Position numbers and translations under genes: made by a program
NCBI RefSeq assembly: GCF_001598795.1
Contig: NZ_BCZP01000040.1
Coordinates: 3,393 to 35,392, forward strand
DNA: 32,000 nucleotides
Origin: Delftia acidovorans NBRC 14950
GTDB taxonomy: Bacteria; Pseudomonadota; Gammaproteobacteria; Burkholderiales; Burkholderiaceae_C
Direction of reading: 5' to 3'
The notes under the pieces: model-generated
Databases searched by the model: none
Told to the model about the DNA's origin: nothing
Seen by the model: the letters and a program-made list of their open reading frames with translations, nothing else
Part shown: piece by piece, positions 10,401 through 31,135 of the stretch
How positions within the stretch are numbered: the first letter of the stretch is position 1
Layout of the letters: every line of letters starts with the position of its first letter

Positions 10401-12770
10401 GCGCTGCGCGGGCTTGCCCTGCGCGGCCTGCGCGGCATCCAGCCACTGCAGCTCCAGCCTGCCCTGGGGGTCCAGGCGCTGCTCGACCTCCCCATCGGGC
10501 CGGGCGTTGAATACCGTGCGCAGCGAACCGTGCCGTTCGGCAAGGCCCTGCACGGCTGCACGCAGGGCGCCAGCATCCAGCGGCCCGGTGATGCGCAGGG
10601 CGCCCTGCACGTGGTAGGCCGTGCTGCGCGTATCCATCTTCCAGAGAAACCATTGGCGCTGCTGGGCCGGCGTCAGCGGCAGGGGCATGGCGCGACGGGC
10701 CTCGGCCAGCGGGGCAATGCGCTGCAGCGCCGTGCCCGGCTGGCGCTGTTGGCACAGCCGGTCGATGTCCTGCGCCTGGTCGCGCAGCCGCGGGTGCTCG
10801 AAGACCCGCCCGGCTGGATACTCCAGGGACCATTGCCGGCAGATGCGCGCGGCCAGCCGCACGGCGGCCAGGGAGTTGCCGCCTTGCGCGAAGAAGTTGG
10901 TCTCGCCGGCCGGCTTGTGCAGGGCATCGCCACCGAGCACCTCGCACCACAGGCCGGCCAGCGTGCTTGTGGTGGGATCTGCCGCACCCGCCTCCTGCGG
11001 TGCCTGGCTGCCGCCGCCCGCGAAGCGGCCCGACTCGAACACGGCCCAGGCATCCAGCGTGCGCGCGGACCAGCCCTGGCGGCAGGCTGCGCGCTGCAGC
11101 TTGCCGCTGGAGGTGCGGGGCAAGGCGCCGGGGTTGAGCAGCACGATCACCCGGGGCGCCTCGCCGCACTGCGCACCCACGGCGGTGCTCAGTGCATCGA
11201 CCAGGGCCTGGGCCGGCACCAGCTTTTGCATGCCGAACGAGACTTCGGCAGCAATGCCTATGCCTTCCCGGCCATCGATGTCCACCGCAAAAGCGGCCAC
11301 GCGCCCCTTGCGCACGGCTTCGACCTCGGCCTCGACCACGCGCTCGATGTCCTGCGGGTAGAGGTTGTGCCCGCGCACGATGATCAGGTCCTTGATGCGG
11401 CCCGCCACATGGACCTGCCCGCCGTGCACGAAGCCCAGGTCGCCCGTGCGCAGCCAGCGCCGGCCTGCATGCTCGACAAAGGCCTGCTGCGTTTGCTGCG
11501 GCTTGCCCCAGTAGCCCTGGCTGATGCTGGGGCCGTGCGCCCAGATCTCGCCCACGCGGCCGGGCTCCAGCACCTGCAGGCTGTGCGGATCGACGATGTT
11601 CACCGAATGGCCGGGAACGGCGGGGCCGCAGCCCACCAGCGGGGTGGTCTGCGAGGCGCCGGAGCTTTCCTCGGCCCGGCCCTGGCCCAGGGCCTCGGTA
11701 TCGAAGGACGTGATCGTGGCGCCTGCGCCGCAACTGCCGCCGGTGACGAACAGGGTGGCTTCGGCCAGGCCGTAGCAGGCATAGGCCGCGTCGGGCCGCA
11801 GGCCGCAGGCGGCAAAGCGCTGCGCGAAGGCCGTGACGGTGTCGGCACGCACGGGTTCGGCACCCGTGTAGGCCAGCCGCCAGCTCGACAGGTCCAGCTG
11901 CGCCAGTTGCGACGGCTTGATGCGCTCCAGGCACATGCGGTAGGCGAAGTCGGGGCCGCCGCTGATGGTGGCGCGGTGGCGCGAGATCAGCTCCAGCCAG
12001 CGCACCGGGCTTTCCAGAAAGAGGCGCGGCGAGGTCAGCACCAGCGGCAGCCCGCTGTACAGCGGCTGCAGCAGTCCGCCGATCAGGCCCATGTCGTGGT
12101 ACAGCGGCGCCCAGGACATGAAGCGGTCGCCCGCGCCGATGTCCATGCGCTGCTGGATGGCGGCCTCGTTGGCGATGAGGTTGCCGTGGCTGACCATCAC
12201 GCCCTTGGGCGCCGAGGTGGAGCCCGAGGTGTATTGCAGGAAGGCGATGTCGTCGGCAGCCGGGGCATGGGGCCGCCAGGCGTCGGCATCGGCCAGGTCC
12301 ACCTGGTCGGCGGCCACGGCGGCAATGCTGGCAAAGCGCGCATCGGCACCGGGCAGGGCCTGCATCACTTCGGCCGTGCTGATCACGCAGGCCGCATCCG
12401 CGTCGCCCACGATGCCCAGCAGCCGCTCCAGGTGCTGCACGCGCAGCGATTCCAGCGGCGGCACCGGCACGGCGATCACGCCCGCGTAGAAGCAGGCCAG
12501 CATGCTGGCGGCGTAGTGCTCGTCGTTGTCCATCATCACCAGGGCGCGCGCGCCCACGGGGCACAGCTGCTGCAGCCGGGCGGCCAGCGCGCGCACGCGG
12601 CGGTCGAACTCGCCATAGCTGTGGCTGCGCTCGACCACGCGGCCGTCCTTCACGGCGGCCACGGTGAGCCAGATGTCGTCGGGCCGCTGCTGCGCCAGCC
12701 CCCTCAGGTGCTCGACCAGGCTGGCCGGCGCCTGGCCTGCTGCCGCGATTGCACTTTGTCCACTCAGCAT
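7410..12770 (-). CDS. NRPS with fatty-acyl-AMP-ligase-type loading domain (FAAL-ACP-C-A-PCP)
   Basis: This is the real part of track ORF 7410..13856. It starts at [12 protein letters not shown] (ATG = complement 12768-12770, with GGGAGG 8 nt upstream). FAAL motifs: [45 protein letters not shown]...[20 protein letters not shown]. Carrier: [15 protein letters not shown] domain: [12 protein letters not shown] domain: [74 protein letters not shown]: [12 protein letters not shown]. The stop TGA (7410-7412) shares one nt with the PKS ATG. Confidence 0.9.
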
Positions 12771-12790
12771 GTCAGCTGCCTCCCGGGTTC

Positions 12791-13780
12791 TCAGAAACGG
12801 TCCAGATTGCTGCGCGGCTCGGCCATGGCGACGATGACCTTGCGCGGCCCCTTGAAGGGCGAGCGGGCATGGGCCACGAGCATGTTGTCCAGCATCAGCA
12901 CGTCGCCCTGCTCCCAGGGGAAGCTGACGGTCTCGGCGTCCAGCGCGGCGCGCACCTCGGCGAAGATGTCGTCGCCGATGGTGGAGCCGTCGGCGAAGAA
13001 GGTGTTGCGCGGCAGGTTCTCGATGCCGTAGACCTCCTCCAGCACCTCGCGCTCCTCGGGCTCGCGCGCCGAGATGTGGAACAGGTGGGCCTGGTTGAAC
13101 CAGACCATCTCGCCCGTGACGGGATGGCTTTCCATGGCCTGGCACAGCTGGCGTGTGCGCAGGCCGTCGTCCTCCTTCCACTCCCAGTCCATGCGCGCAT
13201 GGCGGCAGAAGGCCTCGACCTCGGCGCGGCTTTCGGTGTTGAAGACCTTCTGCCAGGGCACGTCCATCTCGCCGAAGTTGCGCACGTAGAGGATGCCGGG
13301 CTCGAACAGCTCGCGGATGCGCGCCGGAATGCGGCGGTAGACCGCACGGCTGTCGGCAATCGGCGTCTCGCCGCCCTCGGGCGATGCGGTGACGCAGTGG
13401 AACCAGATCTTCATGGGCCACTCGCGCGTGTAGGCCTGCTCGTTGTGCAGCGGAATGCTCTGGTGGGCCGGGTATTCGGTGGAGGTGTAGACGCCCGCGC
13501 CGCTGGAGGCCTCGACCGCGCTGCGCGGCGTGGAGGCAAACTCGTACTTGAGCAGCGGGTGGCCGAAGGCCGAGGCGAAGCGCTGGAAGGTCTCCACATC
13601 GGGCACGCCAAAGCCACGCAGCAGCACGCCGCCCGTGGTCAGCAGGGCCTCGTCGATGTCGCGGCGCAGCGGCGGCAGCGCGGCCAGCAGGTCCTGGCCC
13701 GGCTGGGCGGGCGTGATGAGCTGGGGAAGCAGCGAGCCCGCGGGGGCCTTGCGCTCGAAGCGCTGGAGGGTTTCGTTCAT
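12791..13780 (-). CDS. TauD/TfdA-family (SyrP-like) Fe(II)/2-oxoglutarate dioxygenase, probable carrier-linked amino-acid beta-hydroxylase
   Basis: Track ORF 12791..13801. The sequence resembles NRPS-associated TauD/SyrP hydroxylases (LLRGF..., [14 protein letters not shown]..., [14 protein letters not shown]). I prefer the ATG at 13778-13780 (MNETLQRF), which forms an ATGA overlap with the PPTase stop and follows AAGGAA. The track start at 13801 is a GTG. Confidence 0.85.
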
Positions 13781-14466
13781 GTCGATTCCTTGGTGCGCCA
13801 CGCAAGAGCTGCCGCGTAGCCCGGCGGCGCTGGCAGCGCCATCGCTTGAAAACCATTCCAGTCGGGGACCGCGCAGGCGATGGCCAGCCGTCCGTCCCCT
13901 CCCGGGCTGATGCCTATGGAGCGCAGGTGGTCGGCCACGCCGATGCCGATGGCCTTGAGCACGGCTTCCTTGCCCACCCAGCGCTGGTAGAAGGCCGCCA
14001 GCCGATCAGGCGCACGGCGCACGCTGGCGCGTTCCTGGTCGGTGCAGACGGCGTCGAGCATGACCTCGGCATCGAGGTCGGGCTTGTGCTGCTCGATGTC
14101 CACGCCCAGATGCAGCACGCCACCGGGATCGGCCAGCGCGATCAGCGCATGCCCGCCCGAATGCGAGACATTGAAGAGCGGTGCCCGCAGCGGGTCCTCG
14201 TCGACAAAGGGCTTGCCGTGGACGCCGACCGCCAGCGGCACATCGGCCGGGCAGCAGCCCAGCCTGCGCCCCAGCAGCCGCCGCGTGGCAGCGCGCGTCT
14301 GTGCGAAGCGCAGCCGGTCGGCGGCCCGCACGAAGCGCGCGGCGCGACCGCGCTCTTCGGGGGTCAGGTGCGGCAGGCTGTCGCTCAGCTCGGCCGACAG
14401 GTCCAGGTCCAGCCTGAAGACCTCGATGCCCTGGCTCATGGCCTCACGCACGGACACGAGCTGCAT
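13777..14466 (-). CDS. Sfp/EntD-type 4'-phosphopantetheinyl transferase
   Basis: This is the real part of track ORF 13777..14805. It begins [21 protein letters not shown]... and contains [18 protein letters not shown] and [12 protein letters not shown], the classic PPTase motifs. The start at 14466 follows AGGGGGAA. An alternative ATG is at 14439. Confidence 0.8.
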
Positions 14467-15187
14467 GGATTTCCCCCTGGAGTGACTGGGACCCGGCCAG
14501 GCGCTGCGCCAGCACGGCCAGCACATCGCCTTCGCGCTGCTTGATGAAGAAATGCCCGCCCTCGAACCAGTCCAGCGTGAAGGCCCCGGCGGCCTCCTGC
14601 GACCAGGCCTGGACGCGGGGCGCCTCGATGTCGTCCTGCCGCCCCGCAAAGACGTGCACCGGCAGCGGCAGGCCCGCAGCGGGCACATGGCCGAAGCTCT
14701 CGCAGACGCGGTAGTCGGACCCCAGCACATCCAGCGTGATGCGCATGAGCTCGGGGCTGGCAAACACCTCTTCGGGCGTGCCGCCCTGCCTGCGCAGATC
14801 GGCAATCAGCGCCGCATCGTCGCCCTTGCCCGCAAAGCGCTCGGGATCGCGGCAGGCCGGTGCCGGGCTGCCCGAGGCAATCAGGGCCAGCGGCAACTCC
14901 CTGCCCTGCTCGCGCAACTGCCGCGCCATGCCGAAGGCCAGCAGCGCGCCCATGCTGTGGCCCAGCAGCGCAAAGCGGCCGCGCATGGCCTGGCGCTGCT
15001 CGGCGCACAGCAGCGAGACCAGTTGCCCGAAGTCCTCGACCGCAGGCTCGCCCAGCCGGCTGCCCCGCCCCGGCAGCTCCACCGGCGCAATGCGGATCCA
15101 GTGGGGCAGCAGCCTGCGCCAGCGCAGGTACATGGTGGCGCTGGCGCCTGCGCATGGCAGGCACAGCAGGGTCAGCGGCGCGTGCAT
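14444..15187 (-). CDS. Type II (editing) thioesterase, alpha/beta hydrolase
   Basis: This is the real part of track ORF 14444..15526. It starts MHAPLTLLCLPCAGASATMY, carries the nucleophile elbow GHSMGA, and has a C-terminal GGHFF motif. The ATG (complement 15185-15187) lies 5 nt after the MbtH stop. Confidence 0.85.
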   Translation of the reverse strand: MHAPLTLLCLPCAGASATMYLRWRRLLPHWIRIAPVELPGRGSRLGEPAVEDFGQLVSLLCAEQRQAMRGRFALLGHSMGALLAFGMARQLREQGRELPLALIASGSPAPACRDPERFAGKGDDAALIADLRRQGGTPEEVFASPELMRITLDVLGSDYRVCESFGHVPAAGLPLPVHVFAGRQDDIEAPRVQAWSQEAAGAFTLDWFEGGHFFIKQREGDVLAVLAQRLAGSQSLQGEIHAARVRA

Positions 15188-15192
15188 GCGCG

Positions 15193-15477
15193 TCAGCCCG
15201 CTGCGGTTTCGATAACGGTATCGGTATCGCTTTGCAGCGCGGCGCCGGCTCCCGCCTGCTCCTGCTGCTGCATCCACACGCGCAGCGACTTGGGTCGCAT
15301 GTCGGTCCAGGTGGCGTCCACGTAGTCGAGCACGGTTTTCTTGTCGCCCTTCACGCCCTCCACGGCGGTCCAGCCGCCGGGCACGGCCTTCCAGTGCGGC
15401 CAGATGGAATACTGTTCCTCGTGGTTGACCAGAACGATGAAGGTTTCGTCTTCGCGGTCGAAGCAGCTTGTAGACAT
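15193..15477 (-). CDS. MbtH-like NRPS accessory protein
   Basis: 94 aa. [24 protein letters not shown]...[12 protein letters not shown] matches the MbtH signature (NxEGQYSxWP...GW...W). It is the first gene of the operon. Confidence 0.92.
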
Positions 15478-15678
15478 GCAGGCGTCCTTGTGCAGTTGAA
15501 CATCGGCGAAGCCAGTGCCGGATCACGGCGATCCGGTACTGCGCCTCTGTTCAACATGACGTTCGGCGCCTGAAACTGTTCATGCCATGGCCAGGCATGA
15601 GATTGCGGCGGCAAGCAATTGCCCGCAATTTTCAGAGTACTCCTAGTCCAGATTGGGTTGCCCTATCGCCATTCATCT

Positions 15679-21100: not shown

Positions 21101-22505
21101 GGCAGACCACCGCGACCGGGACCGCAGCCACCCGCCCTGTTGGCCCGGCAACCGCATCCTGCAGGACGACCAGCACCAGTACCGCCATGACAGAGCGGGC
21201 AACCTGCTGGAAAAAAGAGGCCCGCAGCAAACCCATCGCTACCAATGGGACCATGCCAATCGCCTCATAGGCCATGCCGTGCAAACGAACGATGCGGGCC
21301 ATGAGCACGAAGGATCCGCCCGCACGGATGAAGCGCCCACCAGCCAATACTTCTACGACGTCTTCGGCCGCCGCATCGCCCGACGAATCCCCCAAAGCGC
21401 CACCCCTGCTGCCAGCCACCCCACCGGTGCCGGTGTGGCAAAGGGTGACGACAACGCAACCCTGGTCTTCTACGGCTGGGACGGCGACCGGCTCACCCTC
21501 ACCCAATTGCCGGCCCAGAACCACCGGCCAATGCGGCGCATCCACACCCTGTACGAACCGGACAGCCACGTTCCCCTGCTGCGCGTGGAAACCGCAGGGC
21601 TGCCTCCGGAAGTCAACCTGGCCGACCTGTGGGAGCAAGACAGCGGCCACACCACCGATGCACAGCAGCGAAGCATGCTGGCCGAAGTGCAAAAGCAGAT
21701 CCTGGCGGGCCCCAGCCCCCAGATGCGCCAGACCCTGGCCGAATTCGGCCTGGACGCCGACGCGCTGCGGGAGAAACTCCTGCCGCCCGCCGCCGCCATC
21801 ACCCATATCCACCTCTACCACTGCGATCACCTCGGAACGCCCCTTGCCCTGATCGACCCGCTGGGAAAAATCGACTGGCATATCGAACTCGATCCCTGGG
21901 GCAACTGCATCAGGGAATACAACCCCAACCATCTCCACCAACCTATTCGGATGCAGGGACAGCATCTGGATGAGGAATCGGGGCTGTTCTACAACAGGCA
22001 TCGGTATTACGACCCGGCGTTGGGGAGGTATATCAGCCGTGATCCGATTGGGTTGATGGGGGGCATTAATTTTTATGAATATGCCAACACCAACCCTTGC
22101 AATGCATATGATCCATTGGGACTGCAAGCCGTAGCTGCGCAGTCCTGTGTATATACCCAATCCACCGGCAATCTCACATGTACAAGAGATGGTATTGAAA
22201 CAGTAAATAATAACGGATATGCCGGAGCGGGGCAGGGGAGAAACAATCCCGACATGCAAGATGTTTTAAATACTGGCCCATTGCCACGTGGAAACTATAC
22301 GATAGGAGAAGCATTTAGACACAGGACTGCCGGTATTGCTACAAGACGTCTGACGCCGGCACCCGAAAATGATATGCAAGGACGTGCAGGATTCCTTATT
22401 CATGGGGACAATGCAACAGGCACAGCCTCTGAGGGATGTATTGTAATGCCTCGCACGATAAGAGATAGTCTTAATGATGGTGACTCTCTGGAGGTAATTA
22501 GATGA
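18105..22505 (+). CDS. Rhs-family T6SS polymorphic toxin with PAAR-like N-terminus and variable C-terminal toxin tip
   Basis: 1466 aa, with AGGGAGG 7 nt upstream. The N-terminus MNKPAARQGDMTKKGGPVIQGSSTVFIGSSGGVACSACPGG...GNPVNPVLGAKVLTAEVDLALPGPLPLHLSRDYSS closely parallels the enterobacterial RhsA N-terminus as I remember it. There are many YD repeats (YTYDDQGRV, YRHDSAGRL, YGYNASGDL, and others). The core end reads HLYHCDHLGTPLAL...DPWGN...YNRHRYYDPALGRYISRDPIGL...NPCNAYDPLGL. Confidence 0.92.
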   Translation: MNKPAARQGDMTKKGGPVIQGSSTVFIGSSGGVACSACPGGRAEGNPVNPVLGAKVLTAEVDLALPGPLPLHLSRDYSSYQTPTPAPVGLLGPGWWMPGELGLQASREQLIVHDGKGRSICFDPLAPGEVAYSASEHLWLVRGGRERLLGEGHPQRVAHSYLALPLELRQGRDFILATSSALGPWWVLGPERGMAAGTEAAESTDPDTATSEDPPGLDKRHVLLGLVDRFGNQLRLFRHAKGEFKGLVNFIDDGAGRRYQLELQRCSPAQEAAHGWGADAGIRLVAVHLKRDPAFGRQPPPEPLVRYEYSPHGELQAVHGRDGRIMRRFLYDPRHPGRMVGHSHAGRPTSRYTYDDQGRVIEQHNPEGLDYRFDYSAHQEPGADPASPPQASTLVTDGLGRQRLYLFTGEGGLRRIACIIEADGSRHSYRHDSAGRLVEATDPLGRQTTYRLDTASGDVTRITDSAGRTTELQYNLHGQVTRSSTPAAGNESAVHQWRYDPLGLLQEHIDPLGHSTRYHYPEPASDVRPAGAEPSPLRHLPIAVTDAKGGRQELQWDARGLLLRRQDCSGRSTRQAHDAWGNLVAIYGEEGGKLSFTYDDAARLTASINALGEVTRYGYNASGDLERIEHPDGHLEQFALDAWGRTIGYRYGAQGSFFHQRYLRDKAGRLVELHNENASIHRLRYDSQDRVVEETGFDASPRHYQYNAAGQVTASSDALHRTLHHYDERNGRLLARSISALDTEGQDAAPIATEHFDYDSAGTLTGAHHVVHGGYRLGTLFERDLLGRTLAETQQMHGPLGELLWQHRSQRQLDEMGQVTQSTITGLPPLQWLHYGPGHLHGLLLSGRNVLELERDARHREIQRRCGATTVQRAYDSLSRLTTTRLIRDTTHLRGPGAANAQAAGETASGPVLSQLNRSHQYNALGQLCGTGTAQGPWAYAYDPAGRLVQAKGPGMDQRWQYDSAGNRLFAHQQSHHAARQWSDEVRQNLHDPDFNLLQADHRDRDRSHPPCWPGNRILQDDQHQYRHDRAGNLLEKRGPQQTHRYQWDHANRLIGHAVQTNDAGHEHEGSARTDEAPTSQYFYDVFGRRIARRIPQSATPAASHPTGAGVAKGDDNATLVFYGWDGDRLTLTQLPAQNHRPMRRIHTLYEPDSHVPLLRVETAGLPPEVNLADLWEQDSGHTTDAQQRSMLAEVQKQILAGPSPQMRQTLAEFGLDADALREKLLPPAAAITHIHLYHCDHLGTPLALIDPLGKIDWHIELDPWGNCIREYNPNHLHQPIRMQGQHLDEESGLFYNRHRYYDPALGRYISRDPIGLMGGINFYEYANTNPCNAYDPLGLQAVAAQSCVYTQSTGNLTCTRDGIETVNNNGYAGAGQGRNNPDMQDVLNTGPLPRGNYTIGEAFRHRTAGIATRRLTPAPENDMQGRAGFLIHGDNATGTASEGCIVMPRTIRDSLNDGDSLEVIR
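22125..22502 (+). other. Rhs C-terminal toxin tip (126 aa after the DPLGL boundary), candidate DUF2778/Tlde1-like YkuD-fold peptidoglycan-targeting domain
   Basis: The DPLGL motif is encoded at 22110-22124. The tip reads QAVAAQSCVYTQSTGNLTCTRDGIETVNNNGYAGAGQGRNNPDMQDVLNTGPLPRGNYTIGEAF...GRAGFLIHGDNATGTASEGCIVMPRTIRDSL. The GYxGxGxGxNNP, GP[IL]PxGxYxIG and FLIHGD...GTASxGCI pattern matches my recollection of DUF2778/Tlde1. The His...SxGC arrangement recalls the L,D-transpeptidase active site. Confidence 0.55.
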
Positions 22506-22999
22506 GGTTTTCGAAAAATTTTCTGATTTTAACTACACTTGTCCTACCCTCCATAGCAATGAGTGATGTGGCATGCCTCAAGGAAATACAGACTTCAAAG
22601 AAGCAACCTTCTAACAACGAGGTGAGCACGGCTGCATGGAATTGTCTGGATTCGCTTACAGAAAATATAATATCTGGCGATATTAACGCAATTGATGATG
22701 GCGTTAAATTATTGCACCACACAGATGCTGGATATACATCCACGATAAAAATATCGTTAGGACTTGCTTTAAAAAAGGAGCCCGAACATGTGATGATTAA
22801 TCTAAAAGAAAATCATTCATTATTAATATATGTATGTAGTTTAAATTTTATTGAACCAGAAATTAATTTCGTTAAAGAATATTATCAATCAACGAGAGAA
22901 AAATTAGAAAATATAAAGAGCAGGTATTTAGTTAAAGAAAAGGATCTATGCATCAAAAATATGAACCGTTCTTACAAATTATTTTTCATGGAGAATTAA
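22502..22999 (+). CDS. Putative periplasmic immunity protein for the Rhs tip (hypothetical, Sec signal peptide)
   Basis: 165 aa. Its ATG overlaps the Rhs stop (ATGA). The N-terminus MRFSKNFLILTTLVLPSIAMS has a basic n-region, a hydrophobic core and a small-residue cleavage site. Four Cys residues are consistent with periplasmic disulfides. The gene is extremely AT-rich like the toxin tip. I recognise no family. Confidence 0.6.
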   Translation: MRFSKNFLILTTLVLPSIAMSDVACLKEIQTSKKQPSNNEVSTAAWNCLDSLTENIISGDINAIDDGVKLLHHTDAGYTSTIKISLGLALKKEPEHVMINLKENHSLLIYVCSLNFIEPEINFVKEYYQSTREKLENIKSRYLVKEKDLCIKNMNRSYKLFFMEN

Positions 23000-23249
23000 T
23001 TTTTATTGAATTGAGAATTTCAACCATTTGACATAAAATATTACACCCTATACCAAATCAATAGAACAACCTAACTTATCAAATAAAACGATATCTCAAA
23101 TGAATATAGAAAAATTTCAGAAGATATAAACATATTCAATCTCGCCGCCAATATCCATTGACAAGTCAATATTGCATTTAGCGCGTGTTGTGCACTTTGA
23201 AGTACCCGCATTGGCTTTGTACGCTGGTTATCGCAAGGCACAGTGCGCA

Positions 23250-23269
23250 GCCAAGGCTGGTGCCTTGGC
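23250..23269. terminator. GC-rich hairpin between the convergent immunity and sigma-factor genes (possible terminator)
   Basis: GCCAAGGC-TGGT-GCCTTGGC is a perfect 8-bp stem, 30 nt past the ECF sigma stop. There is no clear U-tract on either strand. Confidence 0.2.
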
Positions 23270-23299
23270 AGTCATTGCAACGCTGTGAGCGCCTACCGG

Positions 23300-23824
23300 T
23301 CAATTCAAGTCCAGCAGCGAGCGGTGGACATGGATGGCCTTGCAGGCGTCGGCAATCCTGGCGTTCACCAGGCCCAGCGCACACTCCATGTGCTCGGCGA
23401 TCTGGCGCTGGGTGAGGCCCTTGATGCGGTACAGCTCGAAGGTCTCGCGGGTCTTGGGCGGCACCTCGTCCAGGGCCTGGTCGATCAGGCGTATGGCCTG
23501 GGACTCGAACAAAAGGCGCTCGGGCGAGCGGCTGTCCGGTATCTCCAGCGTCTCCACATCCACGCCGTGGGTGCGGTAGCTGTTCTCGCGCTCCTGGCGG
23601 CGCAGGTAGTCCAGCGCCATGTTGCAGACGGCGCGCGTCCAGTAGGCGGCGGGCCTGGCGATCTCGGCATCGCTGCGCATCTCGGCAACGCGCAGATAGG
23701 TGTCCTGCACGGCGTCGTCGGCCAGTTCGGGATTCCTGAGAATTCTTCGCGCGACCCTCACCAACTGTCCACGCGAAGCAATGAAAACCTCTTCCAGCGA
23801 AGAATGTGTGTGATTCAAGGACAC
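23300..23824 (-). CDS. ECF (group IV) sigma-70 factor, FecI/PvdS-like
   Basis: 174 aa with an apparent GTG start. Region 2: ADDAVQDTYLRVAEM...YWTRAVCNMALDYLRRQ. Region 4 helix-turn-helix: ETFELYRIKGLTQRQIAEHMECALGLVNARIADA. Confidence 0.85.
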   Translation of the reverse strand: MSLNHTHSSLEEVFIASRGQLVRVARRILRNPELADDAVQDTYLRVAEMRSDAEIARPAAYWTRAVCNMALDYLRRQERENSYRTHGVDVETLEIPDSRSPERLLFESQAIRLIDQALDEVPPKTRETFELYRIKGLTQRQIAEHMECALGLVNARIADACKAIHVHRSLLDLN

Positions 23825-24515: not shown

Positions 24516-24557
24516 TTCTTGTCTGTGCAAACGCTGGGTTTGCACAAGGAATCTGGC
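24494..24557. repeat. Direct repeat copy 1 (64 bp: tRNA-Asp 3' end plus downstream hairpins and terminator)
   Basis: Identical to 31937-32000 except one a/g difference (24530 versus 31973). The offset is 7443 bp. Confidence 0.95.
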
Positions 24558-24630
24558 GGAGTGGACGGGACTCGAACCCGCGACCCCCGGCGTGACAGGC
24601 CGGTATTCTAACCAACTGAACTACCACTCC
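24554..24630 (-). tRNA. tRNA-Asp (anticodon GUC)
   Basis: The reverse complement is GGAGTGGTAGTTCAGTTGGTTAGAATACCGGCCTGTCACGCCGGGGGTCGCGGGTTCGAGTCCCGTCCACTCCGCCA. It folds as a cloverleaf with anticodon loop CTGTCAC, a GTTCGAGTC T-loop and an encoded CCA. Confidence 0.95.
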
Positions 24631-24674
24631 TGGCAGACAGCTTTTGCGCTCTTTCGAGCCAAGTGCTGCAAACT

Positions 24675-24750
24675 TGGCGACCCTACGGGGATTCGAACCC
24701 CGGTACTCACCGTGAAAGGGTGATGTCCTAGGCCTCTAGACGATAGGGTC
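24675..24750 (-). tRNA. tRNA-Glu (anticodon UUC)
   Basis: The reverse complement is GACCCTATCGTCTAGAGGCCTAGGACATCACCCTTTCACGGTGAGTACCGGGGTTCGAATCCCCGTAGGGTCGCCA. The anticodon loop is CTTTCAC. Confidence 0.95.
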
Positions 24751-24788
24751 AATCCTAGAACTTGCGTAAATACTCAAGTCTCAATTTT

Positions 24789-24864
<76 letters not shown>

Positions 24865-25342: not shown

Positions 25343-28300
25343 TCAGGCTTCCAGCGGTTTTTCGTCAAACCAGCGGTACAGGGTCGGCAACACCACCAGC
25401 GTGAGCAGGGTGGACGAGATCAGGCCACCGATCACGACGATGGCCAGCGGGCGTTGCACCTCCGAGCCGGGGCCGGTGGCGAACAGGAAGGGCACCAGGC
25501 CCAGCAGCGCGACGGTGGCCGTCATCATCACGGGGCGGAAGCGCTGCACGCAGCCTTCGCGCACGGCCTCGGCCACGTTCATTCCATCCTCGCGCAGCTT
25601 GCGGATGCAGCTGACCAGCACCACGCCGTTGAGCACCGCAATGCCCCACAGCGCGATGAAGCCCACCGATGCCGGCACGCTCACGTATTCGCCCGTGACG
25701 AACAGGCCTATCAGTCCCCCGATGGAGGCGAAAGGCAGCACCAGGATGATCAGCCCGGCCAGCTTGACCGAATTGAACAGCACGAACAGCAGGAAGAAGA
25801 TGGCCACGATGGTCAGCGGCACGATCACCTGCAGCGTGCCCATGGCGCGCTCCATGTTCTCGAACTGGCCGCCGTACTTGAAGTAGTAGCCGTCGGGCAG
25901 TTGCACTTCCTTGTCGATGCGCTGCTGCACTTCGGTCACGAAGCCGCCCAGGTCGCGCCCTTCCACGTTGGCGCCCACGACCACGCGCCGCTTGCCGCCT
26001 TCGCGGCTGATCTGCGCGGGTCCGTCCACCAGTTCGATGCGGGCCACGCTGTTGAGCGGAACCTGCGCGCCGGTGCTGGTGGTCAGCAAGGTGGCGCCGA
26101 CAGCCTGGGGCGAGCCACGGAAGGGCTCGGGGAAGCGCACGACCACGTTGTAGCGGCGCTCGCCCTCGTAGACCGTGGTCACGTCCTTGCCGCCGATGGC
26201 CGACTCGATCACGCCCTGCACGTCGGTGACGTTCAGGCCGTGGCGGGCAATGGCCTTGCGGTCGATATCCACCGTGAGCGCCTGCTGGCCCGACAGCCGC
26301 TCGACACGGATGTCGGTGCTGCCCGGCACGCTCTTGAGGATGCGGGCCACCTGTTCGGAGACATCGCGCAGATCGTCCAGCTCGTCGCCGAAGACCTTGA
26401 TGGCCAGTTGCGAGCGCACGCCCGTGACCATTTCATCCACGCGCTCGGAAATCGGCTGGGACAGCACGATCTGCACGCCCGGAATCGAGGACAGGCGCTG
26501 GCGGATGTCTTCGTCGATCTCGTCCTGGGTGCGGTTGGACTCGGGGTCCAGCAGCACGATGGGATCGGACTCATTGGGGCCTGCGGGATCGGCCGGCGAT
26601 TCACCGCGTCCGAGCTTGGAGACCACGCTGAGCACGCCGGGCACCTCGGCCACGGCCTTCATCGCCGCCATTTCCATGCGGATGGACTCGTCCAGCGAGA
26701 TGCTGGGCACGCGGTTGATCTGCGGCGTAAGCGCGCCCTCCTTCATGGTGGGCATGAAGGACTTGCCCAGCAGCGGGAACAGTCCCAGCGAGCCCAGCAG
26801 CAGCGCCACGGCCACGGCCAGCGTGGCGCGGTTGCGCGCGGTGGCCAGGTCCAGCAGGCGCAGGTAGTGGCGCTTGAGGAAGGCGATCAGGCGCGTGTCA
26901 TGGTCCGCGCCGCCCTTGAGGAAGTACGAGCACAGCACGGGCGACAGGAACAGCGACACGGCCAGCGAGACCGCCAGCGAGATCGCGATGGTCAGTGCCA
27001 GCGGGCCGAACATCTTGCCCTCGATGCCCTGCAGCGTCATCAGCGGCAGGAACACCAGGATGATGATGGCGATGCCGAAGATGGTGGGCGTGGCCACCTC
27101 GGTGGTGGCCGAGAGCACGGTGCGCACGCGTGCGCCCATGCTGTCGCCGGCCTGGCCGAGCTTGTGGAACACGTTCTCCACCACCACCACGGTGGCATCG
27201 ACCATGAGGCCGATGGCGATCGCCAGCCCTCCCAGCGACATGAGGTTGGCCGAGATGCCCCAGCGGTTCATCATGATGAAGGTGGTCAGCGGCGTGATGA
27301 TCAGCGTGGCCACCACGATCAGGCTGGAGCGCACGTCACCCAGGAAGATGAAGAGCACCACGACCACGAGCAGGATGCCCTCGATCAGCACCTTGCCCAC
27401 GGTCCACAGCGCCGAGTCGACCAGGTCGGTACGGTCGTAGTAGGGAACGATCTGCAGGCCGCCGGGGAGCATGCCCTTGGAGTTGATCTCCTGCACGCGC
27501 TCCTTCACGCGGGTGACGACTTCCTTGGCATTGCCGCCGCGCATCATCAGCACGATGCCGGAGACGCCTTCGGTATAGCCGCCCTTGATGATGGCGCCCT
27601 GGCGCACTTCCTGGCCCAGCTGGACCTCGGCCACATCGCGCACGAAGACCGGCACGCCGCCATCCTGCTTGAGGACGATGTTGCCGATGTCCTCCAGCGA
27701 CTGGATCAGGCCCACGGCGCGGATCAGGTACTGCTCGGTCACCTGGGGCAGGATGCCGCCGCTGGCGTTGGCGTTGTTGTCGGCGATGGCCTGGACCACA
27801 TGGCGCACGGACAGGCCGTAGTGGCGCAGCCGGCCGGGGTCGACCTCCACCTGGTACTGCTTGACGTAGCCGCCCTGCGAGTTGATTTCGGCCACGCCGG
27901 GAATGGAGCGCAGCAGCGGGCGCGCCACCCAGTCCTGGATGGTGCGGCGCTCGGTCAGCTCCTCGGGCGTGAGGGCCCGCTTGCCGTCGTCGGGATGGTC
28001 CAGCGTGTACTGGTAGACCTCGCCCAGGCCCGTGGACACCGGCCCCAGCACGGGGATGATGCCTTCGGGCATGCGCGGCGTGACCTCCATCAGCCGCTCG
28101 GTGACGAGCTGGCGCGCAAAGTACACGTCGGTGGTATCGGTGAAGACCAGGGTGATGATGGACAGGCCGCTCTTGTTGAGCGAGCGCATCTCCACCAGGC
28201 CCGGCATGCCGGTCATGGCGATTTCCAGCGGCACGGTCACGAAGCGCTCGATTTCCTCGGGCGAGCGGCCTGGCGCCTCGGTAGCCACCTGGACCTGGAC

Positions 28301-28432
28301 GTTGGTCACGTCAGGAAAGGCGTCCACCGACAGATTCATGGCGGCGCGCAGGCCAAAGCCGCACAGCACCAGCGAGAGCACGATCACGATGAGTCGCTGG
28401 CTCAGTGCGGCCCGGATCATGGAAGCGATCAT
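25343..28432 (-). CDS. CusA/CzcA-family heavy-metal efflux RND transporter (inner-membrane pump)
   Basis: 1029 aa. The typical HME-RND N-terminus is MIASMIRAALSQRLIVIVLSLVLCGFG...VDAFPDVTNVQVQV. The TM4 region is LGGLAIAIGLMVDATVVVVEN. There are twelve-TM-like hydrophobic blocks and two large periplasmic loops. Confidence 0.93.
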   Translation of the reverse strand: MIASMIRAALSQRLIVIVLSLVLCGFGLRAAMNLSVDAFPDVTNVQVQVATEAPGRSPEEIERFVTVPLEIAMTGMPGLVEMRSLNKSGLSIITLVFTDTTDVYFARQLVTERLMEVTPRMPEGIIPVLGPVSTGLGEVYQYTLDHPDDGKRALTPEELTERRTIQDWVARPLLRSIPGVAEINSQGGYVKQYQVEVDPGRLRHYGLSVRHVVQAIADNNANASGGILPQVTEQYLIRAVGLIQSLEDIGNIVLKQDGGVPVFVRDVAEVQLGQEVRQGAIIKGGYTEGVSGIVLMMRGGNAKEVVTRVKERVQEINSKGMLPGGLQIVPYYDRTDLVDSALWTVGKVLIEGILLVVVVLFIFLGDVRSSLIVVATLIITPLTTFIMMNRWGISANLMSLGGLAIAIGLMVDATVVVVENVFHKLGQAGDSMGARVRTVLSATTEVATPTIFGIAIIILVFLPLMTLQGIEGKMFGPLALTIAISLAVSLAVSLFLSPVLCSYFLKGGADHDTRLIAFLKRHYLRLLDLATARNRATLAVAVALLLGSLGLFPLLGKSFMPTMKEGALTPQINRVPSISLDESIRMEMAAMKAVAEVPGVLSVVSKLGRGESPADPAGPNESDPIVLLDPESNRTQDEIDEDIRQRLSSIPGVQIVLSQPISERVDEMVTGVRSQLAIKVFGDELDDLRDVSEQVARILKSVPGSTDIRVERLSGQQALTVDIDRKAIARHGLNVTDVQGVIESAIGGKDVTTVYEGERRYNVVVRFPEPFRGSPQAVGATLLTTSTGAQVPLNSVARIELVDGPAQISREGGKRRVVVGANVEGRDLGGFVTEVQQRIDKEVQLPDGYYFKYGGQFENMERAMGTLQVIVPLTIVAIFFLLFVLFNSVKLAGLIILVLPFASIGGLIGLFVTGEYVSVPASVGFIALWGIAVLNGVVLVSCIRKLREDGMNVAEAVREGCVQRFRPVMMTATVALLGLVPFLFATGPGSEVQRPLAIVVIGGLISSTLLTLVVLPTLYRWFDEKPLEA

Positions 28433-28436
28433 GGGC

Positions 28437-29654
28437 TTACTCCAGCTCTGCGCGCTTGCGCTCGTTGTTCAGGTGGAAGGCGCCCGTGGTGACGATGACC
28501 GTGCCATCGGCCACGCCCTTGTTCACGGGGCGCATGCCGCCGCTGGCAGTGCCCAGCTCGACGGGCGTGAGGCGGTAGTGGTTCTCGCCCTTCTTGACGA
28601 AGACATGGTCGCGATCGTTCTCGCGCACCACGGCCTCGGCCGGCACGGCCAGCAGTTGGCGCACCTCGCCCTGGATGCGCATGGTGGCCAGCATCTGGGG
28701 CTTGAGGTCGCGCTCGGTGTTGTCCACCTGGGTGCGGATGGTGACGGTGCGGGTCTCGGGCGTCACGGTGTCGCCCACATGCACGATCTGGCCGGACAGC
28801 ACGCGCTCGCCCAGGGCGGGCACGGCGATCTCCACGGCCTGGCCGGCGCGCACGCCGCTGGCCATCTGCTCGGGAATCGCGCCCACCACCCAGACACTGC
28901 TCAGGTCGGCCACGGTGAACAGCGGATCGCCGGGCTGGGTCACCTGGCCGGAGCTGACCTTGCGCTCGATCACCACGCCGGCCCCTGTGGACAGCACGGC
29001 GGCATGCGACTGCAGCGTGCCCTTGTCGCGCAGCTGGGCGATGGCGCTGTCGGGAATGCCGATCAGGCGCAACTGGTCGCCGGCAGCGCGCTGCTCGGCG
29101 CGCGCAATCGACAGCTCGGACTCGCGGCGCTGCAGTTCGGCCGAGCCGATGACGTCAGCGGCGATCAGCTGGCGGGCGCGCTCCACGCCGCGCTCGGCCA
29201 GCGTGGCGGCGGAGTGTGCACGCAGATAGGCCAACTGGGCGGTGGTCAGCTCGGGGCTGGCCACGCGGGCCAGCACCTGGCCCGCACGCACGCGGTCGCC
29301 CACTTCGACCAGCACCTCGGTCACGCGCCCCGTGGCGGCCGCGCCAATGCGGGTGACCTGGCGCTCATTGGCCTCGATGCGGCCGGACACCTCCTGCAGC
29401 AGCGCGATCTGCGCCTGCGCCACGGGCTTGACGGCGAAGTTGGGCGCCATCTCGGCGGTCACACGGACCTCCATCGGGTCCTGCTCCTGGGCAGCGGCCG
29501 CTGCGGGCGCCGCCTTGGCTTCGGCCTCTTCGTTCTTGCCGCAGGCGCTCAGCGCCAGCGTTGCGGCCAGCAGTCCGGCCAGGGCCAGGGAGTTCACCAA
29601 GGTGCTGCTGCCTGCGCGGGCGGCGATGGGTTTCGGATGCATATTCAAGGACAT
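28437..29654 (-). CDS. Efflux RND periplasmic adaptor (membrane fusion protein, CzcB/CusB-like)
   Basis: Track ORF 28437..29699. It has a lipoprotein-like signal (LLAATLALSAC). A lipoyl/hairpin region follows (GRVTEVLVEVGDRVRAGQVLARVASPEL), then beta-barrel motifs. The start is uncertain: ATG at 29654 or 29642, or a GTG at 29699 overlapping the upstream stop. Confidence 0.85.
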   Translation of the reverse strand: MSLNMHPKPIAARAGSSTLVNSLALAGLLAATLALSACGKNEEAEAKAAPAAAAAQEQDPMEVRVTAEMAPNFAVKPVAQAQIALLQEVSGRIEANERQVTRIGAAATGRVTEVLVEVGDRVRAGQVLARVASPELTTAQLAYLRAHSAATLAERGVERARQLIAADVIGSAELQRRESELSIARAEQRAAGDQLRLIGIPDSAIAQLRDKGTLQSHAAVLSTGAGVVIERKVSSGQVTQPGDPLFTVADLSSVWVVGAIPEQMASGVRAGQAVEIAVPALGERVLSGQIVHVGDTVTPETRTVTIRTQVDNTERDLKPQMLATMRIQGEVRQLLAVPAEAVVRENDRDHVFVKKGENHYRLTPVELGTASGGMRPVNKGVADGTVIVTTGAFHLNNERKRAELE

Positions 29655-29695
29655 GTTCGTTTCTGATTTCGGGTGTGAGGCAGGGACGGCGCGCT

Positions 29696-31135
29696 TCACA
29701 GCGCGGACGGATCGTCGTAGCGGCCCGCGAGGTATTCGAGCTGTATGCGCGCCGCCTGCAGCTGGTAGCGCGCATCGAGCAGGTCTGCACGGATGGAGCG
29801 CAGCACGCGCTGCGCATCGAGCACATCGAGAATGCCGCGCTCGCCGAAGCGGTAGGCGGCCTCGGCCACGCGCAGGGCCGACTCGGCCTCGCGCACCGAA
29901 CCCTGGCTCAGTGCCTGGGTGCGCAGTCGTGCCATCTCCAGCTCCTTCCAGGCCTGCAGCGTCTGCTGGCGCAGCTCGATCTGCCGGCCTTCCAGCTGCA
30001 GACGCGCGCGCTCCAGCTCGGAGGCGGCCTCGTCGATGGGGCCGCGGTGCTGGTCGAGCAAGGGGATCTGGATGCTCACGCCCACCGTGTTCAGGCGCAC
30101 GTCGGGCTCGCGCGTCTGGCCGTAGCGCAGCTCCACGCCCGGCCAGCGCGAGGCCTTGGCACCGTCAAGCCGCGCCTGGGCACGCTCGACCTCCGCCTTG
30201 AGCTGGCGCAGTTCGGGGTGCTCCATGGGATCGATCTCGCCCATGTCCTCGATGCGCAACGGATCCTCCAGCGACACATCCAGGCGGAAGCGCACGGGCA
30301 GCTGGCCTGCGGCCAGGCGGCCCAGCGACAGCTGCGCCTGCTCGGCACGCAGCCTTGCGGTCTGCTCCTGCTGGCGCGCCTGGATGATTTCGGCATCGGC
30401 CTTGATGATTTCGTAGCGGGCCGCCTCGCCGCTGTCCACGCGGACGCGGACGCGCTCATGGGCCTGCTCCAGAAGGCGCACCGCCTCCTTGGCGGCCTCG
30501 ACCTCCGCCTCGCGCAGCACCATTTCGTAGGCGCGCAGCCGCACCTGGGCCACCAGCGCATTGCGCGTGGTCGCTACGAAGTGCACCGACCCCTGCTCGC
30601 CTGCCTTGGCGGCCTCCACGCGCGCACCGCGCACGGCGGGGTTCTCGATGGGCAACGCCACGGCCCAGCCCTGCACCGTGCCGGCCGCCGCGCCGGGCAC
30701 GCGGGCGCTGTTTCGGCCCTGGTTCCATTCGAGCTTGGGATTGGGCAGCGCCGAGGCGCTGACCACGCCTGCGCGCGCCGTGGTGCGCGACTGCTCGACG
30801 GCGCGCAGATCGGGGTTGTGGTCCAGCACGGCGCGAACGACCTCGTTCAGGCTCAGCTGGGGCAGGCGCTGTGCGGCGGCCGAAGCCACCGAAGCCGTTG
30901 AAGCCGTCGATGCGGCCTTAGGCGTGACCGGGGCGCGGGCCGCTGCGGCCTCGGCGGCTGCAGCCGCGGCGGGTGCCGCCTGGGTCATGGGAGGCTGGGA
31001 TGCCTGTGCCGAGGCACCGGCACTCCAGCCCACCAGCAGGCTGCAGATCGCGCCTTGCAAGGCCTTGCGCGAAAAGGATGGAAAACGAGCGGGGGCCATT
31101 CCCGCCAATACCGTTGGATTCACCATGGCATGCAT
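29696..31135 (-). CDS. TolC-family outer-membrane efflux factor (CzcC/CusC-like)
   Basis: 479 aa. It has a signal-like N-terminus and an Ala-rich linker, then two repeated coiled-coil/beta halves (LSLNEVVRAVLDHNPDL... and ...ALRVAEAAYRFGERGILDVLDAQRVL...YQLQAARIQLEYL). It sits directly upstream of the adaptor and pump. Confidence 0.85.
   Translation of the reverse strand: MHAMVNPTVLAGMAPARFPSFSRKALQGAICSLLVGWSAGASAQASQPPMTQAAPAAAAAAEAAAARAPVTPKAASTASTASVASAAAQRLPQLSLNEVVRAVLDHNPDLRAVEQSRTTARAGVVSASALPNPKLEWNQGRNSARVPGAAAGTVQGWAVALPIENPAVRGARVEAAKAGEQGSVHFVATTRNALVAQVRLRAYEMVLREAEVEAAKEAVRLLEQAHERVRVRVDSGEAARYEIIKADAEIIQARQQEQTARLRAEQAQLSLGRLAAGQLPVRFRLDVSLEDPLRIEDMGEIDPMEHPELRQLKAEVERAQARLDGAKASRWPGVELRYGQTREPDVRLNTVGVSIQIPLLDQHRGPIDEAASELERARLQLEGRQIELRQQTLQAWKELEMARLRTQALSQGSVREAESALRVAEAAYRFGERGILDVLDAQRVLRSIRADLLDARYQLQAARIQLEYLAGRYDDPSAL

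Follow-up and report, generated by a model that had tools for sequence, protein, structure and literature searches.

A probable VgrG-associated Rhs effector of Delftia acidovorans with a predicted Tlde1 (YkuD-fold) toxin tip and an exported candidate immunity protein

A characterised counterpart of the locus analysed here is the Tlde1a/Tldi1a pair of Salmonella Typhimurium (STM14_0336), delivered by a type VI secretion system (T6SS): Tlde1a carries the DUF2778 domain, is toxic in the periplasm only and is kept in check by an immunity protein located there (bioRxiv 10.1101/2020.02.18.954545). The same preprint, which founded the Tlde1 family under the older names Tae5/6/7, described DUF2778 at the C-termini of Rhs proteins (e.g. 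Shigella sonnei WP_052983304.1) and found Rhs-DUF2778 in 11% (387/3510) of the genomes of the 'Tae7' family (Sibinelli-Sousa et al., 2020; bioRxiv 10.1101/2020.02.18.954545). L,D-peptidase toxin domains on Rhs repeats had been predicted before (Zhang et al., 2012, as cited in bioRxiv 10.1101/2020.02.18.954545). Rhs and PAAR-Rhs effectors in general are predicted to act almost exclusively inside the cell (bioRxiv 10.1101/2024.02.26.582050; PMC12994826). The present analysis concerns an rhs gene of Delftia acidovorans NBRC 14950, the toxin tip at the end of its product and the short open reading frame (ORF) behind it, all located in a stretch of 32,000 nucleotides (nt) of contig NZ_BCZP01000040.1, hereafter the window. 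With a probability of roughly 0.8, the gene encodes a VgrG-associated T6SS Rhs effector, in which a caged Tlde1 (YkuD-fold) cysteine peptidase or transpeptidase acts on periplasmic peptidoglycan; the exact reaction of the tip is proposed with lower confidence than this overall picture.

A first-pass annotation, made from the DNA letters, had placed a toxin tip behind a DPLGL demarcation of the Rhs protein and likened it to DUF2778/Tlde1 enzymes. The demarcation and the tip were found at these places (Table 1), and the tip, 126 amino acids (aa) followed by the stop codon, holds GYAGAGQGRNNP, GPLPRGNYTIG and GFLIHGDNATGTASEGCIV, as had been described. The likeness was confirmed by hidden Markov model searches: the tip matched Tlde1_dom (PF10908) with 54.8 bits (E=1.6e-14, gathering cutoff 30.1, tip residues 29-112), YkuD (PF03734) came second with 21.1 bits, under its cutoff of 23.4, and no NCBIfam model matched the tip. 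A structural model of the tip was built with AlphaFold2 from a 40-homologue alignment (pLDDT 94.7, pTM 0.88) and was compared with the PDB using Foldseek. Each of the top 50 matches (E down to 3.7e-5, TMq 0.52-0.63) was an L,D-transpeptidase (LdtMt1/2/3/5, M. abscessus Ldt2, E. faecium Ldt), YkuD itself or the LD-carboxypeptidase Pgp2. Because both the family model and the fold were positive, the assignment of the tip as a Tlde1/YkuD-fold domain stands.

The residues R87, H93, D95, S102, G104, C105 and R113 (tip numbering) were invariant in the 40-homologue alignment, and H93 and C105, which correspond to H1433 and C1445 of the full-length protein, are the catalytic candidates. In the profile alignment, the HG...AS-x-GC pattern of the tip family fell on the HG...ASHGC pattern of the YkuD-family protein 4lpq. 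The His...Ser-x-Gly-Cys arrangement had been called a shortened version of the YkuD motif, and the spacing bears this out: H93 and C105 are 12 positions apart, compared with 14 in most relatives and in 4lpq. The same catalytic arrangement and the same fold are shared with canonical YkuD/Ldt enzymes (B. subtilis YkuD 1y7m, M. tuberculosis LdtMt2 3vyo and C. jejuni Pgp2 6xj6; Foldseek probability 1.00, TMq 0.59-0.63), whereas the tip is only 11-18% identical to them, scores below the YkuD threshold, has a shorter catalytic loop and carries no accessory peptidoglycan-binding domains; it is a toxin module, they are housekeeping enzymes. The tip is under purifying selection (dN/dS 0.11), and the same or nearly the same allele was present in several Delftia genomes and metagenomes. 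Its homologues numbered 457 at E<=1e-3 in a collection of 5.8 billion proteins, nearly all of them matching PF10908 and most being stand-alone proteins of ~120 aa, and an exhaustive search of 1.84 billion representatives gave 2123 tip-like clusters at the same threshold. Outside the Delftia cassette described below, nothing was more than 63% identical to the tip, and the best match in a scan of genome contigs was 55% identical.

The protein that carries the tip (WP_051940931.1 of D. acidovorans by protein look-up) has the hallmarks of a polymorphic toxin: YD/RHS repeats, an RHS core and a PxxxxDPxGL demarcation ahead of the tip, as located with Pfam, NCBIfam and motif positions. Over its full length, the Pfam scores were 176.6 bits for RHS_repeat, 60.3 for DUF6531, 45.5 for RHS and 48.4 for Tlde1_dom, and the layout was DUF6531 at aa 45-122, 12 RHS-repeat stretches, the RHS domain and Tlde1_dom at aa 1369-1452. 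The NCBIfam model TIGR03696 (Rhs_assc_core) matched with 87.5 bits (cutoff 32.5) and YD_repeat_2x with 175 bits. A literal PAAR is present at aa 4-7, and the Pfam PAAR_motif match was weak (E=0.016, 15.9 bits, below the cutoff of 27). Neither a prePAAR region nor a transmembrane-like segment was found in the Rhs protein (highest 19-residue Kyte-Doolittle mean, 1.13). Cleavage after the Rhs-core motif is established for Rhs and Tc-toxin cores. Both Asp-containing motifs, DPIGL and DPLGL, are present here and the autoproteolysis site is presumed to lie after L1340. The vgrG gene is located upstream, its end being separated from the start of rhs by 24 nt, and its product exactly matches D. acidovorans WP_230590918.1.

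Directly downstream of the tip, and overlapping the end of rhs by 4 nt (ATGA), is an ORF encoding 165 aa (WP_155294312.1). Its N-terminus, MRFSKNFLILTTLVLPSIAMS followed by D, reads as a Sec-type signal peptide according to a hydrophobicity heuristic. The ORF is under purifying selection (dN/dS 0.22-0.23) and its homologues formed two clusters only among the 5.8 billion proteins (95% and 84% identity), both inside the same cassette. These homologues always adjoin this Tlde1 tip: in three loci (L001-L003) they stand behind the same full-length Rhs protein, and in four others (L004-L006, L008) the Rhs protein ends in another tip, a 187-aa ORF comes after it, and the 165-aa ORF is found further along, on an orphan fragment together with the core end and the Tlde1 tip. 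In L004-L006, the orphan copy is homologous to the window from the codons for EESGLFYNRHRYYDP up to ~28 nt beyond the immunity stop codon. Since the orphan cassette carries both, the tip and the 165-aa ORF are passed on together. Within the cassette the GC content falls from 0.54 to 0.27, the flanks being at ~0.69. The orphan arrangement, which occupies the same locus in the related Delftia contigs, is the classical Rhs tip-displacement pattern, and purifying selection persists on the displaced toxin/immunity cassette. No Pfam match was obtained for the alternative Rhs tip of L004, for its 187-aa partner or for the ORFs downstream of the tip in three further loci (L010, L073 and L054). Between the cassette end and the gene for an extracytoplasmic function (ECF) sigma factor lies a stretch of ~150 nt with a GC content of ~0.26 (Table 1), which is absent from the otherwise collinear loci L004-L006. 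A promoter and terminator scan of positions 22900-23400 was uninformative.

The following course of events is proposed. The Rhs protein would be loaded onto VgrG by means of its PAAR-motif N-terminus, and its core, as in other members of the family, would cleave itself after DPLGL, with the 126-aa tip remaining in the cage. Firing of the T6SS would bring the spike into the periplasm of the recipient, where the tip would be released. There, the H1433/C1445 dyad, aided by S1442, G1444 and R1427, would remove the terminal D-Ala of tetrapeptide stems or replace it, in the manner of Salmonella Tlde1a, and the wall would be weakened. Protection of the producer would fall to the co-translated 165-aa protein, which its Sec signal peptide would direct to the periplasm. 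The low-GC cassette of core end, tip and immunity gene may be swapped through recombination in the conserved end of the Rhs core.

Several points weigh against this picture. No T6SS core genes were found inside the window, for which reason the locus is regarded as an auxiliary vgrG-rhs island. Literature searches found no experimental study of any Rhs-borne Tlde1, nor of the Delftia protein. Searches of PDB sequences with the tip alone (phmmer) or with a 40-sequence profile did not retrieve the Tlde1a chains and gave only a marginal YkuD match (4lpq, E=0.62), so the link between the tip and Tlde1a is drawn from the Pfam match and the motif spacing. Signal peptides were called with the hydrophobicity heuristic and not with a trained predictor. 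The 165-aa ORF belongs to no Pfam or NCBIfam family, and its AlphaFold2 model, built from only 3 sequences, was unusable (pLDDT 56). It is a candidate immunity protein on the basis of its position, signal peptide and co-inheritance. Two departures of the tip from Tlde1a, in the active site and in the capping subdomain, belong to the same side of the account.

The comparison with Tlde1a bears mainly on the reaction. PF10908 and the L,D-transpeptidase core fold are common to the two systems, and T6SS delivery and a periplasmic immunity protein, known for Tlde1a, are proposed for the Delftia tip. In Tlde1a, for which a crystal structure is available, the key residues are R115, H121, S128, H129, G130 and C131 (PMC9638812); R87, H93, S102, G104 and C105 of the tip correspond to all of these except H129. 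R and H are 6 positions apart in both proteins, and both have S-x-G-C, whereas the H-to-C distance is 12 positions in the tip and 10 in Tlde1a. In place of H129, for which a hydrogen bond to the D-Ala4 carboxylate is predicted (PMC9638812), the tip has a glutamate (E103, SEGC instead of SHGC), and its substrate or reaction may differ. Among 353 aligned homologues, this position was occupied by E in 159, N in 51, Q in 28 and H in 26. Because H was found in so few, the second His of (S/T)HGC is not conserved in the branch of the tip. The capping subdomain of Tlde1a appears to be absent from the tip as well, which may likewise alter substrate and reaction; the secondary structure predicted in the AlphaFold2 model, taken by itself, has no helix-containing element between the core strands. 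The tip is also shorter, at 126 aa versus the 2-174 Salmonella construct (bioRxiv 10.1101/2020.02.18.954545). The disulfides C66-C86 and C37-C111 of Tlde1a have no counterpart in the tip, whose only cysteines, C8, C19 and the catalytic C105, are too few for two such bonds. Moreover, Tlde1a is a free-standing effector presumed to travel on Hcp, whereas the Delftia tip would be caged in Rhs on VgrG. The gene order differs too, Tldi1 being encoded upstream of tlde1 in Salmonella and the candidate immunity protein downstream of the tip in Delftia. By its family match and residues, the tip is a member of the Tlde1 family outside the Tlde1a subfamily.

These differences are the basis of the first alternative, which keeps the fold and the compartment and changes the chemistry: as a YkuD-fold cysteine hydrolase, the tip would attack something else in the periplasm, e.g. 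3-3 cross-links or the Lpp-peptidoglycan link, or it would serve as a general transpeptidase, and the L,D-carboxypeptidase/D-amino-acid exchange reaction shown for Tlde1a would not apply. The replacement of the histidine predicted to contact D-Ala4 and the reduced length speak for it, as does the statement of the Tlde1a authors that the capping insert is specific to Tlde1a, with 'more general TPase activity' (transpeptidase) predicted for subfamilies without the insert. On the other hand, the conserved Arg of the exchange pocket (R115, R87 in the tip) and Gly (G130, G104 in the tip), both invariant among the homologues, are read by the same authors as the sign of D-amino-acid exchange in all Tlde1 subfamilies, and nothing positive points to any alternative substrate. 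A different reaction is considered unlikely.

As to the site of action, the first-pass annotation had remarked that the signal-peptide protein encoded next to the tip fits periplasmic delivery, and this reading gained ground when other loci were inspected. Among the Tlde1 loci of species-representative genomes, 8/80 were in frame with an Rhs core, and in 7/7 of the Rhs-Tlde1 loci having downstream sequence the next ORF had a signal-peptide-like N-terminus (same heuristic), often with a 4-nt overlap. The seven are spread over unrelated phyla (Geobacteraceae, Burkholderiales, Gemmatimonadaceae, Thermoanaerobaculia, Myxococcota, Rhizobacter). Together with the co-inheritance of the cassette and the periplasm-only toxicity of Tlde1a, the downstream ORFs with their predicted signal peptides make action in the periplasm the best-supported site for the tip. 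Alternatively, the tip could work in the cytoplasm like most Rhs toxins, e.g. on peptidoglycan precursors, and the 165-aa ORF would then not be its immunity protein. The predominantly intracellular action predicted for Rhs effectors, and the fact that the 165-aa ORF, a candidate by sequence, belongs to no known immunity family, would suit such a scheme, but it is very improbable: besides the evidence just listed, the Rhs protein has neither a transmembrane segment nor a prePAAR region to aid inner-membrane crossing, and a cysteine pair conserved in the subclade of the tip suggests an oxidising compartment. That the tip is a decayed recombination leftover, as its low-GC, horizontally acquired segment and the orphan copies in related strains might suggest, is hardly credible for a confidently folded domain in frame with an intact 1466-aa Rhs protein, which keeps every family-invariant residue, is under purifying selection and recurs almost unchanged in several Delftia genomes and metagenomes.

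Table 1. Features of the vgrG-rhs island and its surroundings; positions are those of the window unless a contig is named.
Feature	Position	Strand	Basis or remark
VgrG spike protein, 780 aa	15738..18080	+	Phage_GPD E=1.3e-109, Gp5_trimer_C, Phage_base_V (Pfam)
Rhs effector, 1466 aa	18105..22505	+	PAAR-motif N-terminus, DUF6531, YD/RHS repeats, RHS core, Tlde1 tip
RHS-associated core domain (aa 1263-1340)	21891..22124	+	TIGR03696
DPIGL, aa 1313-1317	22041-22055	+	motif position
DPLGL, aa 1336-1340	22110-22124	+	tip starts right behind
Tlde1/DUF2778 toxin tip, aa 1341-1466 and stop	22125..22505	+	PF10908, AlphaFold2 fold, invariant residues, dN/dS
Cysteine pair C1348/C1359 (tip C8/C19)	22146-22148, 22179-22181	+	one on each strand of first predicted beta-hairpin
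Catalytic candidates H1433, C1445	22401-22403, 22437-22439	+	conserved too: R1427, D1435, S1442, G1444
Shine-Dalgarno GGAGG	22490..22494	+	7 nt ahead of the ATG of the 165-aa ORF
Candidate immunity protein, 165 aa	22502..22999	+	predicted Sec signal peptide aa 1-21 (AMS, then D); ATGA overlap with rhs stop
Exchangeable core-end/tip/immunity cassette	21971..23027	+	homology with orphan copies; GC profile
Loci with displaced cassette behind a different Rhs tip	L004:4469-6132, L005:839-2502, L006:569-2232, L008:634-1577		related Delftia contigs
Low-GC stretch behind the cassette	23028-23180		
NRPS/PKS cluster	2725-15526	-	
tRNA-Asp/Glu/Ala cluster	24554-24864	-	
CzcCBA-type efflux operon	25346-31135		

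The cysteine pair of the tip is formed by C8 and C19 (C1348 and C1359). In the AlphaFold2 model, the strands of the first hairpin comprise residues 7-11 and 16-21, a register that would set C8 opposite C19, so that a disulfide between the two is possible and would fit periplasmic action. The pair was present in 34/52 Rhs-linked homologues versus 16/301 others (Fisher p=3e-22, uncorrected). By clustering, it belonged mostly to one subclade (33 members, 32 with the pair, 24 Rhs-linked), while a second subclade (21 members, 11 Rhs-linked) was without it. The pair is thus a lineage trait: a general requirement for Rhs encapsulation is ruled out by the pair-less Rhs-linked subclade, and most of the association stems from one clade. 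A more elaborate proposal is that the Rhs-caged tips of the cysteine-pair subclade are adapted to encapsulation and periplasmic release: the C1348/C1359 disulfide would form only after the unfolded tip has left the cage in the recipient periplasm, intoxication would be Dsb-dependent, and the capless SEGC site would have a reaction or substrate unlike that of Tlde1a. This proposal is doubtful; if true, the tip could serve as a natural reporter of an Rhs cage for which opening in the periplasm is the default.

Rhs effectors are usually treated as vehicles for cytoplasmic toxins, and the place and manner of cage release are unsettled. Whether release is periplasmic could be asked conveniently with an Rhs tip that naturally acts in the periplasm, can be read out through its cysteine and comes with an exported immunity protein. 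The Delftia tip would also allow a first biochemical test of a Tlde1 subfamily with neither capping subdomain nor SHGC histidine. In practical terms the value of the locus is modest but real; the protein is already in RefSeq, and the architecture has been known since 2020.

A peptidoglycan-directed tip on an Rhs protein had been called unusual in the first-pass annotation. This holds in so far as Rhs tips are predicted to be nearly all intracellular; it does not hold for the fusion as such, since Rhs-DUF2778 proteins were described in 2020 and are frequent in databases. Significant similarity to the Rhs core was shown by 40 of the 150 closest representative proteins, ten of these 40 being >1000 aa, and the precomputed JGI annotation of an identical metagenomic protein already lists PF10908. 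The Rhs-DUF2778 architecture is therefore not new, having been documented since 2020, and the Delftia protein is an uncharacterised further case; a literature search on Rhs work in the Delftia T6SS gave nothing specific. As in the 'Tae7' proteins of the founding preprint, DUF2778 stands at the Rhs C-terminus in a T6SS context, and the Rhs-fused proportion of loci was similar (~10%, from the 8/80 given above, versus the reported 11%). The stand-alone relatives of the tip (Serratia, Pantoea, Erwinia, Paraburkholderia) match the taxa of that group, and judged by these taxa the tip probably belongs to the widespread 'Tae7' branch, which we take to be the later Tlde1c. The Delftia case differs in its host, Delftia acidovorans (Comamonadaceae), and in its immunity protein, which is unrelated and nearly unique. 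With the prediction of Zhang et al. (2012), as far as it is relayed in the preprint, it shares the idea of Rhs repeats that end in an L,D-peptidase tip and have an immunity gene beside them, but the 165-aa ORF, which has no Pfam match, corresponds to neither of the immunity families named there (Imm16/DUF2750 and Imm57).

Other contexts of the domain were seen in the course of the searches. Besides the Rhs fusions, there were proteins with two tandem Tlde1 stretches, one 1420-aa protein with the domain at its N-terminus, and carriers of >1200 aa without Rhs-core similarity (P0123, P0135, P0182, P0216, P0250, P0131, P0184; L084). Because several of these large carriers lack Rhs-core similarity, other delivery scaffolds also appear to use the Tlde1 domain. 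Unannotated 'hypothetical' proteins with 43-49% identity to the tip were found in 58 phage genomes (48 Erwinia, 8 Dickeya, 1 Yersinia, 1 Citromicrobium); the Erwinia phages listed are jumbo phages of ~265 kb (records H26-H35, e.g. MH248138.1:164605-164955). On Pantoea agglomerans megaplasmids (H10, H11, H14, H15, H17), DUF2778/Tlde1 genes adjoin annotations of a 'Shiga toxin A subunit' and, once, tssD (hcp).

The remaining genes of the window flank the island. Directly upstream of vgrG-rhs is a cluster encoding a nonribosomal peptide synthetase (NRPS; condensation-adenylation-thiolation modules, C-A-T), a polyketide synthase (PKS; ketosynthase, acyltransferase, ketoreductase and acyl carrier protein, KS-AT-KR-ACP), a thioesterase and a phosphopantetheinyl transferase (PPTase). 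This cluster presumably resembles the delftibactin cluster of D. acidovorans. On the other side, the ECF sigma factor gene lies beyond the cassette end, the tRNA cluster is located ~1.5 kb past the island, between this gene and the efflux operon, and the CzcCBA-type operon, of the resistance-nodulation-division (RND) class, follows downstream of the tRNA genes.

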